Below are positions 5,869 through 11,191 of a stretch of DNA of 64,000 nt, one piece after another (position 1 is the first letter of the stretch; every line of letters starts with the position of its first letter). A program made the position numbers and the translations under genes. The notes under the pieces are model-generated. The model saw nothing but the letters and a program-made list of their open reading frames with translations, was not told the origin of the DNA and did not search any database. The stretch is from contig NZ_JBDVMZ010000008.1 in NCBI RefSeq assembly GCF_039969895.1, forward strand, positions 66,262-130,261, given 5' to 3'. This DNA is from Algoriphagus sp. Its GTDB lineage: Bacteria > Bacteroidota > Bacteroidia > Cytophagales > Cyclobacteriaceae.

Positions 5869-7278
5869 TCACCTCACCCGCTCCTTAATCCACTCCAACA
5901 CCACTTCCATCGCTTTTGGAGAGAAGGTCTGCTCTATCTCAGCATACTCGCTTGGTGCGCCAGTTTTAGCTTCTTGGAATAGGTGGTTCAAACCTGGCAA
6001 TTCCATTGTCGTCACTTTGGTGTTTCCGCCTTTTGCTAAGGCAGCTTTTATCGCTTCCAAGTTCTCTTTTGCTGGGACTTGGAGGTCCTTTTCTCCGTTG
6101 ATCGCCAATACAGGACAACTCACTTTCTCCAAGGCTGGAGCTGGATCGTACTTGATGAAATACTGCATCCACGGGGTAGCCAGCGAAGCCATCTGAGCCA
6201 TTTGCTCGTCGACAAATTTCCCCTCCGTCATCCCGCTAGGCAAATTGGCTGTTGGGATATTTCTATACGTCTGAGCCATGTAATTTCGCAGGTCTCCCTT
6301 CAACTCTTCTGTTCCCTGATCTTTGAGCACGATATCGAAGATGCCTCGGTTGAGCATCGCGCTTTCTTCCAACTGATTAGGACTCATGCCTGATACTTCT
6401 CCGATCAGTCTTTGCTGAGCGAGAAGCAATTCATCTCCGCGAATCCCTGTTCCTGCCAGCAGCACAAGAAAGTCAATGTCATCTGAACCACCAGCTACCA
6501 TCGGCGCGATGATTCCTCCTTCGCTATGACCTATCAGACCGATTTTACTTTTGTCGATCTCAGGTCTAGCCTGCAAGTACTGCACTGCCGAAGCTACATC
6601 CGTAGCAAAGTCAACCGAAGTAGCCGCAGCAAAATTTCCTGTAGAAGCTGCCGTTCCCCGATCATCAAAGCGCAAGACTGCAATCCCATTTTTGGTGAGG
6701 TAATCCGACAAGACCAGAAATGGTTTGTGCCCCATCAATTCCTCGTCGCGATTCTGTGGACCAGATCCAGAGATCAGCACTACCGCCGGGTAAGTCCCTT
6801 CCTTTTCGGGCATGGTGAGCGTCCCTGCAAGTAAAATTTCCGCTTGACTATTTTCAAAAATCACATCTTCCGAACGATAAGGAAAAGGCTTTTTAGGTTC
6901 CTGAGGTCTATTTGAACCCAGTTTTGCTATCTCCTTTCTCGATAAGTTCATAGGGAAAGATTGTCCTCCTTGATTGAAAACTCCGATGATGATGTTGTCC
7001 TCTCCCAGCGTTCCTTCGTAGGTGATATTTGCGTTGGTGATCGCGACTTTCAACTTATCATCTTCAAAACTCGCCGCAGTTGCTGGAATCCCGAATGCTC
7101 CCTGATCTGGGCTATCCATGGTGGCACTGTAACCAGTTTCGGATTTCTTGATATTGAATACCAACCTCAGTTGCACTCCGGTTACTTTCAAGACGCCATT
7201 CCATTGACCGGTGATATCTTGGGCGAAAGATGCTAGGGTGAAAAGAAATGCGAGGAGAAATAATGGGAAGATTTTCAT
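5869..7278 (-). CDS. Secreted alpha/beta-fold hydrolase (S9-like peptidase/esterase)
   Basis: Signal peptide MKIFPLFLLAFLFTLASFAQ; SGSGPQNRDE, GHSEGG nucleophile elbow, GEKDLQV Asp, GLNHLFQ His. Start moved to ATG 7278. Confidence 0.88.
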   Translation of the reverse strand: MKIFPLFLLAFLFTLASFAQDITGQWNGVLKVTGVQLRLVFNIKKSETGYSATMDSPDQGAFGIPATAASFEDDKLKVAITNANITYEGTLGEDNIIIGVFNQGGQSFPMNLSRKEIAKLGSNRPQEPKKPFPYRSEDVIFENSQAEILLAGTLTMPEKEGTYPAVVLISGSGPQNRDEELMGHKPFLVLSDYLTKNGIAVLRFDDRGTAASTGNFAAATSVDFATDVASAVQYLQARPEIDKSKIGLIGHSEGGIIAPMVAGGSDDIDFLVLLAGTGIRGDELLLAQQRLIGEVSGMSPNQLEESAMLNRGIFDIVLKDQGTEELKGDLRNYMAQTYRNIPTANLPSGMTEGKFVDEQMAQMASLATPWMQYFIKYDPAPALEKVSCPVLAINGEKDLQVPAKENLEAIKAALAKGGNTKVTTMELPGLNHLFQEAKTGAPSEYAEIEQTFSPKAMEVVLEWIKERVR

Positions 7279-7556
7279 GGGAATTGGAAATAATGTGGCT
7301 TTTCTATCGACTAAAGAAAAGTAAAAGAAACTAGTTGCCAAAATAGAGTCATGAATACTCAGCTCAATGTATTACTGCTAAGACGAAATGATTGCTATTT
7401 GAGGAAATTCTATTTGTGGCGAATTCGTCATAGTTAAAATCTGAATTTTGAACTGACATTCAAATGTCAAAACTCAACCATTTTACTAATAGTGGAATAA
7501 ATAGACATACTCTGATAATGGAAAAGTTCTTCATAAAATGGAAATCCGAAGGACAA

Positions 7557-8614
7557 AGTTTCGCCCCATTCGGGGCTCTAAAAAAAATCAAGGTTTACCT
7601 TACCCCGCACTGCGTACGGGGTCATGAATCGTGACGCTCCTTCGGAGCTATACTTTGGCAATGGAAGAAATGGATTTAAAACCATTTGCCTCTGATAGTG
7701 ATGCTTTTTTTAATTCCGTATTCTCATCGCAGCATTTGCAAAACCATTTAAAATATAGCCGTCATGATAAGAGTTTTCCGAAAAGATCCGAAGGATTGAA
7801 ACCATTCATGACCCTCGGCGAAGCCGGGGGTAATCATAATATAATGTATATGGAAGCCCCGAATGGGGCGAAACTACAACGTATCACCCGTTCTGGCCTC
7901 TTTAAAACTAAGCATTCACCTGCTCAGTACTTTCTACACAGTCATGAAGCGTGACGCTCCTTCGGAGCTATGCTTTGGCAATGGAAGAAATGGATTTACG
8001 ACCAATTGCCTCTGATAGTGATGCTTTTTTTAATTCCGTATTCCCATCGCAGGATTTGCAAAACCATTTAAAATATAGCCGTCATGATAAGCGTTTTCCG
8101 AAAAGATCCGAAGGATTGAAACCATTCATGACCCTCGGCGAAGCCGGGGGTAATCAGAACATAATAGGTGTGTGGAAGCCCCGAATGGGGCGAAACTACA
8201 ACGTGTCACCCGTTCTGGCCTCTTTAAAACTAAGCATTCTCCTGCTCGGTACTTACTACAGAGTCATAAATCGTGACCCTCCTTCGGAGCTATACTTTGG
8301 CAATGGAAGAAATGGATTTAAAACCAATTGCCTCTGATAGTGATGCTTTTTTTAATTCCGTATTCCCAACGCAGCATTTGCAAAACCATTTAAAATATAG
8401 CCGTCATGATAAGAGTTTTCCGAAAAGATCCGGAGGATTGAAATTATTCATGACCCTCGGCAAAGCCGGGGGTAATCAGAACATAATATGTATATGGAAG
8501 CCCCGAATGGGGCGAAACTTCACCGTATCACCCGTTCTGGCCTCTTTAAAACTAAGCATTCTCCTGCTCAGAACTTACTACACAGTCATGAAGCGTGACG
8601 CTCCTTCAGAGCTA
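7557..8614. repeat. Tandem array of three 320-322 bp hairpin-rich units plus a partial fourth, with an inverted 93-bp module at the left edge
   Basis: Units start at 7621, 7941, 8263 and 8585 (GTCAT(G/A)AA). About 20 differences between units 1 and 2 by hand count. Segment 7557-7649 is an imperfect inverted copy of 7784-7875. Confidence 0.95.
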
Positions 8615-8763
8615 GTCTTACGGTTAAAATCAGACACCTAATTTATCTACCCGTTCAATAACCGCTTCTATTACTCTCGCAATCAAAGACAACCATTGCC
8701 TCCCTCATTCTAATTCCCTATTTTCCATCATACAATTAGCAAACCCATCCAAATCCCAACTCA

Positions 8764-10368
8764 GTGCTCACACTTTTTAGTTTTCTAGCCTTTACTGGCT
8801 TTGTAGCAGCCTACTCTACCTTGATGCTGCGCAAACAAAACCTTCAAACTCAAGACGGGTACTTCTTAGGAGGTCGAAGTCTCACTGGAGTAGTCATCGC
8901 TGGATCCATGCTCCTCACCAATATCTCTACCGAGCATCTGGTAGGAATGAATGGCTCAGCCTATAAAAACGGGGCTATCATCATCGCTTGGGAAGTCACT
9001 TCGGCTATTGCGCTCGTGATCGGCGCATTATATTTTATCCCAAAATACCTGAGAATGGGGCTGACCACCATCCCTGAATTCTTGGAAAAGCGCTTTGATA
9101 AAATGACGCAAGCGCTCATTTCCCTGCTATTGATCATCTCTTTTGTCGTGACGCTTTTGCCTATCGTACTCTATACTGGGGCAATCAACATTGAATCTAT
9201 CTTTGGGATATCGGAAACGCTGGGAATTACTCAGGCAGAAGGAATCTGGCTTACGGTAGTTGTGGTGGGTGTAATCGGATCAGTTTATGCAATTTTCGGA
9301 GGACTCAAAATGGTGGCCTATACGGATACCATCAACGGTTTTGGCTTGCTCATCGCAGGCTTACTTGTACCGATTTTTGCACTCTGGGATATTGGGGATG
9401 GAAATATTATTACCGGTCTGACTAAAGTTTTCAATAATGCTCCTGAGAAGTTCAATGTAATTAGTAAAGAACCTTCGATTGGGCCAGGCTCTAGAGATTC
9501 CATTCTGCCTTTCGAAGTGCTATTTACAGGCCTGATCATCAATCAGCTCTACTTCTGGACTATGCATCAATCCATCGTGCAGCGAGCATTGGGCGCGGTG
9601 AGTTTGAAGGAAGCTCAAAAAGGGCTTTTGTTTACAGGAATTCTGAAAATCCTCATTCCGTTGGTGATTGTGCTTCCAGGGATTATTGGGTTCTACTATT
9701 TCGGAGATTCGTTTTTTGATTCTCAAGACAGCGTATATCCAGAATTGGTCAAGCGGGTACTTCCCACTTGGATGACGGGCTTCTTTGTAGCCGTGATCAT
9801 GGGAGCAATTTTGAGTACGTTCAACAGTGCGCTGAATAGTGCTGCGACGATTTTCAGTCTGGATATTTTCAAGGTTTATATCAACAAAGCCGCTAAGGAA
9901 ACGCAGCTCGTTCGGATAGGAAAGTGGACTTCGGCGATTTTAGCTTTAGCAGCGATTCTTGTTGCGCCTTTTGTAGCCAATGCTCCTGCAGGACTTTACC
10001 AACTTTTGCAACAGCTGAACGGCATCTTTTTTATCCCCATGGCCACTGTGATTATTGCCGGATTCTTTTTCCCCAAAGTATCTGCTGCAGGAGCCAAAGC
10101 AGGACTACTCTTTGGGCTTGCCTTCTATATTTTGATGGATTTGGTATTCAAGGTAGATATTCACTTTGTCCACATCTGGGGAATTGAGTTTGTGCTTAAC
10201 CTTATCGTTATGCATTTGGTATCTGCTAAGTATCCGGTCACCGGGCCGTTTGTGATGGCGGACTCTGGCAAACTGAGCATCGCCCCTTGGAAACATGCCA
10301 AAACTCTAGGCTGGATCTTGATTGCGATCACGGTAATTATTTATGTAATTTTAGGTACAATCGCTTAA
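8764..10368 (+). CDS. Sodium:solute symporter (SSS family), probable myo-inositol/sugar uptake
   Basis: DGYFLGGRSL, SMLLTNISTEHLVG, TTIPEFLEKRF and QSIVQRALG motifs; about 14 TM; GTG start; directly upstream of MIOX. Confidence 0.92.
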   Translation: MLTLFSFLAFTGFVAAYSTLMLRKQNLQTQDGYFLGGRSLTGVVIAGSMLLTNISTEHLVGMNGSAYKNGAIIIAWEVTSAIALVIGALYFIPKYLRMGLTTIPEFLEKRFDKMTQALISLLLIISFVVTLLPIVLYTGAINIESIFGISETLGITQAEGIWLTVVVVGVIGSVYAIFGGLKMVAYTDTINGFGLLIAGLLVPIFALWDIGDGNIITGLTKVFNNAPEKFNVISKEPSIGPGSRDSILPFEVLFTGLIINQLYFWTMHQSIVQRALGAVSLKEAQKGLLFTGILKILIPLVIVLPGIIGFYYFGDSFFDSQDSVYPELVKRVLPTWMTGFFVAVIMGAILSTFNSALNSAATIFSLDIFKVYINKAAKETQLVRIGKWTSAILALAAILVAPFVANAPAGLYQLLQQLNGIFFIPMATVIIAGFFFPKVSAAGAKAGLLFGLAFYILMDLVFKVDIHFVHIWGIEFVLNLIVMHLVSAKYPVTGPFVMADSGKLSIAPWKHAKTLGWILIAITVIIYVILGTIA

Positions 10369-10372
10369 TACT

Positions 10373-11191
10373 ATGGAGACTACGGAAAAAGAATTCAGAA
10401 ACTATGACCATGTAGATGTCAAAGCTGCTGTGAAGGAACACTACCGCAAAATGCGCATGTATCAGACGTATGACTACGTGCAAAAAATGAAGGAAAAATA
10501 TCTCACGTTTGACAAACCCATGAATCTCTGGGATGCAATGGAAAAGCTCAATTCACTAATCGATGTAAGTGATCCTGACTTGGACTTGCCCAATGTGCAG
10601 CATCTAATCCAGTCAGCAGAAGCGCTACGTGCTGATAATCGTGCAGACTGGATGCAGCTGGTAGGTTTGATTCATGACCTGGGAAAAGTGATGTATTTAT
10701 TCGGAAGCGATGAAGATGGCACCAGCCAAGCAGAGCAGTGGGGCTTGGTCGGCGATGTGTTCGTAGTCGGGGCCAAATTGCCTGACACCTGCGTATATCC
10801 TGAGTTCAACGAATTGAATCCTGACATGAAAGATCCGCGCTACAATACAGAGCTGGGGATTTACGAAAAAGGCTGCGGCCTAGACAACTTGCAGTTAGCC
10901 TGGGGACACGACGAGTATTTTTACCAAGTTTTAAAAAACCATCCTACCAACACAATCCCTGAAGCAGGTATGGTGATGGTTCGCTATCATTCGTTTTATC
11001 CTTGGCACAATGGCGGAAGTTACGCGCAGTTTGAAGCTCCTCAAGATGCGCAATACAAGGAGTGGATTTTGGATTTCAATCAATATGACCTTTATACCAA
11101 GTCTCCAAAAATGTATGATCTGGAAGACATGAAGGATTACTACCTACCGATTGCTGAGAAATACCTGGGTAAGGGGCCGCTCTTCTGGTAA
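10373..11191 (+). CDS. miox: myo-inositol oxygenase (MIOX, HD-domain di-iron)
   Basis: IDVSDPD, QHLIQSAE, IHDLGK, WGHDEY, RYHSFYPWH and FNQYDLYTK motifs of the MIOX family. Confidence 0.9.
   Translation: METTEKEFRNYDHVDVKAAVKEHYRKMRMYQTYDYVQKMKEKYLTFDKPMNLWDAMEKLNSLIDVSDPDLDLPNVQHLIQSAEALRADNRADWMQLVGLIHDLGKVMYLFGSDEDGTSQAEQWGLVGDVFVVGAKLPDTCVYPEFNELNPDMKDPRYNTELGIYEKGCGLDNLQLAWGHDEYFYQVLKNHPTNTIPEAGMVMVRYHSFYPWHNGGSYAQFEAPQDAQYKEWILDFNQYDLYTKSPKMYDLEDMKDYYLPIAEKYLGKGPLFW

Follow-up and report, generated by a model that had tools for sequence, protein, structure and literature searches.

The locus and its neighbours

The window, meaning the whole stretch of DNA that was analysed, is 64,000 nucleotides long and covers positions 66262 to 130261 of contig C8 in an Algoriphagus genome of 4.63 Mb (26 contigs, 42% G+C). 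Within it, a tandem array of 3.1 units of 320–322 bp lies at 7621–8614 on the plus strand. To its left is an alpha/beta hydrolase gene (5869–7341, minus strand; Pfam) that is transcribed away from the array. To its right are the genes for a sodium:solute symporter (PF00474) and a myo-inositol oxygenase (MIOX; PF05153), which are 4 nt apart and together span 8764–11191 on the plus strand, and the symporter gene starts 150 bp past the end of the array.

The divergent hydrolase gene, the symporter gene, and the MIOX gene stand in the same order in 20 close species. In 11 of these 20, the nearest one included, the hydrolase/symporter intergenic region is only 90–145 bp long. Three genomes (G075, G108, and G051) have long intergenic regions of about 1.1 kb that were considered as candidate repeat arrays, but they hold an inserted gene of 278 amino acids instead. 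The site seems to be permissive for insertions of this kind.

Anatomy of the array

Tandem Repeats Finder reports a single array at 7621–8614 with a period of 322, 3.1 copies, and 93% matches. An earlier note on this DNA, made from the letters alone, had placed the unit starts at 7621, 7941, and 8263, with a 30-nt fourth start at 8585, and both the sequence and the comparison of the units agree with this. The direct repeat that bounds the units is 30 nt long and begins GTCATGAA. The four hairpins that had been read in the second unit lie exactly where they were placed, and the one at 7956–7968 was also found in a separate hairpin scan. The left edge (7557–7649) is, as proposed, an inverted copy of 7784–7875, with 21 nt that are 100% complementary, 50 nt that are 72% complementary, and an nhmmer E-value of 3e-23.

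The array is built as L-core-R-5nt-L'-core-R-5nt-L'-core-R-5nt-L', which amounts to three doublets and one module. The first module, L (7557–7649, minus strand), is an intact A-type arm recognised by its inverted repeats and by nhmmer against the module profile, with hairpin H3 at 7563–7576, H2 at 7602–7622, and H1 at 7636–7648. It is followed by the first copy of the core, or long linker (7650–7783, no strand assigned), whose second and third copies are at 7970–8103 and 8292–8425; in this genome, the core occurs at this locus only. The first R module, a B-type arm (7784–7875, plus strand), has three intact hairpins and scores 93 bits with nhmmer, and its pairing is backed by covariation. The second and third R modules (8104–8197 and 8426–8519, both on the plus strand) were found with the same profile. 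A 5-nt linker at 7876–7880 joins the first R to the first L' (7881–7969, minus strand; nhmmer iteration 3, E = 1e-12), which is a degenerate L with H1 intact and H2 and H3 decayed. The iterated profile also finds L' at 8203–8291 and 8525–8613 on the minus strand, the last of these being an extra terminal module after which the ancestral downstream flank begins.

The claim that a core is bracketed by inverted modules held for the brackets themselves but not for the rest of the unit. The 65-nt unit tail, taken together with the 30 nt that open the following unit, makes up a full-length degenerate L module in the iterated profile search (E about 1e-12), and this is L'. In its outer part, L' looks like L (z about 4) and even more like the single L found at the same site in the genome G124 (z 5.9), the GTTC loop included. 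Directly before L, at 7544–7553 on the plus strand, the letters ATCC-GAA-GGA could be what is left of an R-type module, with H1 only, as far as one can tell from reading the sequence. The same motif also precedes L at the orthologous locus of G092. The modules thus alternate as L, R, L', R, L', R, L', with linkers of 134 nt and 5 nt and a period of 320–322, which is the layout of a BIME or a tandem REPIN cluster.

The units are 93–94% identical in pairs. The earlier note called their differences mosaic; they turn out to be star-like instead, since 28 of the 29 variable columns are private to one unit (7, 11, and 10 in units 1, 2, and 3) and the remaining one is a three-way difference. The 2-bp indel that had been reported between units is real and falls at unit columns 226–227. 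All three L' copies carry identical decayed sequence features, which means that the decay preceded the amplification. In the stems of the three R modules, none of the 36 positions is substituted against 3.2 expected (P about 0.03, post hoc).

The 92-nt module is a dispersed three-hairpin repeat

The module is 92 nt long and, in the consensus of 82 copies, consists of three hairpins (H1, H2, and H3), a conserved single-stranded linker with the sequence AACnnTTCATRACC, and the 3' end GAAACT. BLASTN and nhmmer find the module dispersed over this genome, and a motif pattern finds it across the genus. With BLASTN and nhmmer, about 16 modules are seen at 8 loci of this genome, 7 of them in the array. 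Those outside the array include four copies in alternating orientation on contig C12 and convergent pairs on C14 and C4, and others are on C21, C6, C7, and C3. The motif pattern, made of the H1 loop and the linker, has 13 matches in this genome and is present in 45 of 121 Algoriphagus genomes with 2–31 matches each, while the reversed control gives about 0. The copy number is thus low, at most about 31 motif matches per genome; classical REPs have over 100 copies per genome.

Unlike the module, the 134-nt core and the 65-nt tail have no other site in this genome by BLASTN and nhmmer. The core was also considered as a separate dispersed element, and this was rejected because the core alone has no significant match in 120 genomes of the genus. 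It is recognisable only within an L-core-R segment, in G024, G092, and G127. No second copy of the array was found in the whole genus set of 123 genomes, and two exact-pattern scans of metagenome contigs for other copy numbers in further strains found nothing.

To look for compensatory changes in the stems, 82 distinct modules taken from 30 loci were aligned, and all three hairpins show such changes. Across these modules, 90.6% of the cells are paired, and sliding the partners lowers this share to 35–55%. Double changes are found in 173 cells compared to 73 in shuffles, a score that none of 500 shuffles reaches, and 12 of the 19 pairs have them. The stems contain 140 G-T wobbles against 38 A-C mismatches, and this excess indicates that one strand is the folded one, reading H1-H2-H3-GAAACT.

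The two arms of a doublet consistently differ in their stems. One arm has ATCC/GGAT as its H1 and the other has GCTCC/GGAGC, and there are differences in the H2 stems too, while the linker AACnnTTCATRACC stays constant between them. Convergent R-5nt-L doublets are present on C14, C4, and C12 of this genome, and relatives have many plus/minus module pairs about 152 nt apart. The convergent R-5nt-L doublet is the dispersed unit of the family. As a dispersed hairpin repeat with compensatory changes and an inverted-doublet organisation, the family has the makeup of REP and REPIN elements. Of the tetranucleotides found at the 5' end of REPs, neither GTAG nor CGTC is in the consensus of the 82 modules.

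The partner Y1/HUH gene in relatives

The earlier note had suggested a search for a RAYT- or IS200-family gene flanked by the same hairpins, and the relatives have one. In A. yeomjeoni (G024), an open reading frame of 148 amino acids stands between R and L modules and matches the Pfam family Y1_Tnp (PF01797) with E = 1.9e-21. Among 120 other Algoriphagus genomes, orthologues with at least 60% identity occur as one copy each in 18 species. A module lies directly on both sides of the gene, in inverted orientation, at 15 of these 18 loci. At two of the other loci, only one side has a module (a contig end cuts one of these loci), and the last has modules 150–190 nt off. Of the 12 loci of paralogues at 44–49% identity, 11 are without modules.

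Tandem arrays of the module are found at some of these loci as well. For example, A. halophytocola TR-M5 (G092) has at least 5.4 tandem doublet units of 252/265 nt directly downstream of its Y1 gene (C1:3226163–3229606), and there are module arrays beside the Y1 gene in G096, G116, and G125. The A. halophytocola array has two alternating linker variants.

The cognate protein has the HUH motif NHIH and the Y motif YIKGQKEHH, which fits the signature Y---Q--HH of TnpA-Y1 subclass 1.2. This subclass is of low copy number, occurs in Cyanobacteria and Bacteroidetes, and is listed without an associated REP structure (PMC6006769). In NCBIfam, the cognate protein matches the IS200 model only (62 bits against a cut-off of 55) and has no match to REP_Tyr_transpos at E <=0.01; the paralogous protein encoded on C21 reaches 19.5 bits with that model against a cut-off of 80. 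The nearest solved structures in the PDB are the TnpA proteins of IS608 and ISDra2. The NCBIfam matches, the PDB matches, and the Y motif all leave the partner enzyme outside the class 2 TnpA-REP/RAYT clade. By every genomic criterion tested, the protein nevertheless behaves like a RAYT. Presumably, the enzyme binds and cuts the folded single strand of the modules. Homologues of about 50% identity in Niabella, Chryseobacterium, and a Prevotellaceae genome also have inverted three-hairpin flanks with this layout, which were seen by eye only.

The cognate gene has been lost from this genome

The statement that no cognate transposase lies in the window is correct, as there is no Y1/HUH gene in it. 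A Pfam search of the whole genome finds four Y1 genes: an IS200-type gene at the start of C4 and subclass-1.2-like genes on C12, C6, and C21. By tblastn and Pfam search, the only relatives of the cognate gene in this genome are paralogues of at most 43% identity, and the best match is the C21 gene at 43%.

The place where the gene once stood can be recognised. A cluster of four modules at C12:57470–57912 is flanked by genes whose products are 78–89% identical in amino acids to those flanking the Y1 locus in relatives (G024, G092, G073, G049, and G084 were compared). This synteny identifies the cluster as the orthologous Y1 locus, from which the cognate gene has disappeared in this genome. The genome G078, sister of this one on a tree of the symporter and MIOX genes (SSF+MIOX), is likewise without the gene at the locus. 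The relatives thus combine the repeats, in one genome, with a single-copy Y1 HUH gene that lies between them; this genome does not.

Two of the remaining Y1 genes have repeats of their own. The C21 gene (580785–581228, minus strand) is accompanied by a sister three-hairpin family with the H1 sequence GACCAC-GAA-GTGGTT and the same linker motif. The sister modules form tandem units of about 300 nt at C21:579986–581847 and C3:249937–250324; both stretches are at contig ends, and the array probably broke the assembly. The subclass-1.2-like gene at C6:121281–121721 has on either side a direct repeat of at least 390 nt; these repeats have a period of about 953 nt and carry other hairpins.

Origin and history of the array

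The source of the array can be traced through its core. The core sequence is homologous (z 7–10) in the array, in the orthologous locus of G092, and in the linker that adjoins the Y1 gene of G024 and G127. In the latter two genomes, a whole L-core-R stands beside the gene, and identity is 72–74% over L-core-R. This homology with the linker on the Y1 side means that the segment derives from the Y1 locus.

Partial versions of the insertion survive at the orthologous site in relatives. G092 has a single L-core-R there with a truncated R. In G124, a remnant of the H3 of an R module is followed by a spacer and then by one L, which adjoins the same downstream flank as here; the flank at 8614–8763 aligns with the sequence after this single L. 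The three lineages that have modules at the site do not form a clade on the single-locus tree, which implies either several losses or repeated insertion.

The earlier reading of the locus as a non-autonomous REPIN- or BIME-like element tied to an HUH nuclease has fared well: the module is dispersed, its hairpins covary, and the Y1 gene is bracketed by it in relatives. The array is probably a REP/REPIN-like cluster that began as an insertion derived from the Y1 locus, was amplified by recombination, and, with the cognate gene lost from the genome, is now an immobile relic with no demonstrated function.

The proposed history runs as follows. The family would spread as convergent doublets made of R, the 5-nt linker, and L, and we infer that a Y1 enzyme mobilised them. 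An R(remnant)-L-core-R-L' segment would have come to lie between the hydrolase and symporter genes in an old insertion, before these species diverged, and its outer arm L' (and the outer remnant) would then have decayed. An event confined to this lineage, either unequal homologous recombination or replication slippage at the 30-nt repeats in L and L', would have duplicated the 320-bp interval, and a further round would have produced three units and the terminal L'. The units would since have drifted by about 3% each. With the Y1 gene gone, the array would be left as an immobile and presumably neutral relic between two divergent promoters.

Of the two amplification routes that the earlier note offered, unequal crossover fits best, because 30-nt direct copies of the hairpin region bound the unit. 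Rolling-circle amplification fares worse, because the left arm that was copied had already decayed. Recombination or slippage between the direct repeats in L and L' yields exactly n x (DR+X) + DR, an arrangement that classically marks recombination between direct repeats. The units are 6–7% apart, compared to about 0.21 substitutions per site between this genome and G078 in the neighbouring genes; if the Y1 gene was lost before the split from G078, the amplification took place without the enzyme gene.

Several observations count against this explanation or leave room beside it. The copy number of the family is low, unlike that of classical REPs, and the unchanged stems of the R modules could mean continuing constraint rather than neutral decay. 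Arrays recur in the family, mostly next to the Y1 gene, so that a route by way of the enzyme is conceivable. Also, the paralogous Y1 gene on C21 might, to go by its sister modules and their shared linker motif, act across families. The only evidence that the repeats are cleaved and mobile, as they may be, is that orthologous sites differ in the presence or absence of modules and that L-core-R is found at two non-orthologous loci.

Could the array have arisen or persisted in another way?

The first alternative concerns the nature of the enzyme. The IS200-branch Y1 enzymes of Bacteroidota (subclass 1.2) may be true domesticated nucleases of the REP type that move multi-unit blocks, and the arrays would then be either by-products of the enzyme or selected. 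As a by-product, an array may arise from a nick and re-initiation at the TTCATGAC linker. We consider this unlikely, though it would change the meaning of the locus: the array would be a preserved record of enzyme activity and not an accident of recombination.

A related and slightly less probable proposal is that a Y1/HUH enzyme, and not host recombination, built this particular array, acting either as the cognate enzyme before its loss or as the C21 paralogue. Possible routes are the repeated insertion of excised single-stranded copies beside a copy already in place and a rolling-circle-like re-initiation at a nick in the conserved linker. Doublet arrays do recur beside the Y1 gene in the four relatives described above and around the paralogue (C21 and C3), the unit boundary (GTCATGAA) falls inside the most conserved single-stranded linker, and the presence of an L-core-R segment at both the Y1 locus and this site is evidently due to movement between the two. 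However, every copied unit contains a decayed L', with H2 and H3 destroyed, as well as 134 nt of core that is not module, and such a unit is a poor substrate for the enzyme. The array unit also occurs nowhere else in the genome, its n x (DR+X) + DR structure points to direct-repeat recombination, and the cognate gene is missing both here and in G078, although the units have diverged so little.

The array could instead be functional in cis or as RNA and be kept by selection, as a source of structured transcripts or, between the divergent hydrolase and symporter/MIOX promoters, as a spacer, an insulator, or a platform for protein binding. Its three units have persisted at 93–94% identity without collapse, the unsubstituted R stems are a weak hint of constraint, and the bias of G-T over A-C means that the folding of one strand matters. 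In E. coli, REP elements have documented effects on neighbouring mRNAs (10.64898/2026.03.23.713779). Set against this, the same strand bias is equally expected if single-stranded DNA is what is recognised, and 11 of the 20 close species, the nearest one among them, manage with the short intergenic region. The earlier suggestion of an array of structured noncoding RNAs found no support in Rfam, where nothing matched at the gathering score and the only two matches with E <=1 (0.27 and 0.33) were at chance level and fell far short of the gathering scores of their families. Simple scans for terminators and promoters likewise found nothing beyond chance: sigma-70-like promoter sites are not enriched, and T-runs after the hairpins fall on no consistent strand, though Bacteroidota promoters lie outside the models that were scanned. 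A selected function is therefore improbable, and more so than construction by an enzyme.

The array could also be an artefact of assembly, with one unit over-collapsed or over-expanded. Tandem repeats are often mishandled in short-read assemblies, and the public runs contain no single contig that covers the whole array. In this case, however, 29 positions distinguish the units, and unitigs from four public runs of one study (possibly the assembly's own data) match the unit-specific stretches and the junctions between units 1 and 2 and units 2 and 3 with zero differences. The depth of the array unitigs is about that of the single-copy flanks. With exact junctions at about flank depth, an artefact is very unlikely, and the array is treated as real.

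Finally, the idea that each unit encodes a small protein, which one open frame across each unit might suggest (7631–7954, 7951–8337, and 8273–8641, with GTG starts and GTGA stop/start overlaps), is effectively refuted, since all dozen or so differences in the first 70 codons alter the amino acid, units 2 and 3 are thrown out of frame by the 2-bp indel, a Pfam search gives no match, the homologous cores of G024 and G092 share 65–75% DNA identity but almost no peptide identity, and module hairpins make up half of the frame.

What the locus adds, and how it compares with known systems

To our knowledge, REP/REPIN-RAYT partnerships have been studied almost entirely in Proteobacteria. The present locus is a Bacteroidota counterpart, with an enzyme of the IS200 branch and a large three-hairpin repeat whose arms differ in stem sequence with the structure kept. 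Here the array is found away from the Y1 gene, in a genome that has lost that gene. In such a natural "orphan", the decay of repeats and the growth of clusters can be measured with the enzyme absent. It is also a warning to annotators not to take the open frames in arrays like this one for genes. The array in itself is what direct repeats ordinarily give rise to, with no shown effect on the inositol genes next to it.

The array as such is of a known kind, with tandem REPIN clusters as its counterpart and BIME-2 as the classical E. coli analogue. The differences lie in the branch of the enzyme, the three hairpins and the asymmetry of the module, the small number of copies, and the orphan state. 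In the literature searched, no description of REP-like partners for IS200-branch Y1 enzymes in Bacteroidota was found beyond the 2018 survey of Y1 subclasses.

The closest match in layout is Pseudomonas fluorescens SBW25, in which REPINs form tandem clusters that include flanking sequence, the largest consisting of four REPINs and one REP in over 700 bp (Bertels and Rainey 2011, PMC3116915). The array described here, with three doublets and one module in 1.06 kb, is of similar design: inverted hairpin doublets follow each other head to tail together with flanking sequence, and clusters of the family are also found beside the Y1 gene. It differs in that the modules are 92 nt long with three hairpins, rather than about 20–40 nt with one, and in that the arms consistently differ in stem sequence. 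The family also numbers in the tens and not in the hundreds, and its partner enzyme, missing from this genome, is of the IS200 branch and not a class 2 RAYT.

Like the BIME-2 and REPtron elements of E. coli (PMC3333891, PMC2817692), the array has modules in alternating orientation, regular short and long linkers, and a variable number of tandem units, but it has no conserved GTAG/CGTC tag at the module end. The family resembles the E. coli TnpA-REP system (Ton-Hoang et al. 2012; Nunvar et al. 2010) in its link to a Y1 HUH gene that occurs as a single copy with the repeats on either side, in this case in relatives. Unlike TnpA-REP, its enzyme is not a REP_Tyr_transpos protein by NCBIfam and is closest in structure to the TnpA of IS608 and ISDra2.

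With subclass 1.2 (Quentin, Siguier, Chandler, and Fichant 2018, PMC6006769), the enzyme shares the motif YIKGQKEHH, a length of 148 amino acids, low copy number, and its occurrence in Bacteroidetes. The subclass as surveyed has no REP structure, whereas the gene here is bracketed by dispersed three-hairpin modules. With the IS200/IS605 family and its PATEs and MITEs, the common ground is subterminal hairpins, Y1 recognition as single-stranded DNA, and gene-less derivatives. An IS200/IS605 element carries its own tnpA between its hairpin ends and is usually present in several copies; here the window has no Y1 gene, and the frames in the units are under no coding constraint. Across species, the Y1 gene is single-copy at a syntenic locus and not multi-copy, and the ends are inverted copies folded on opposite strands instead of the same-strand LE and RE hairpins of IS200/IS605.
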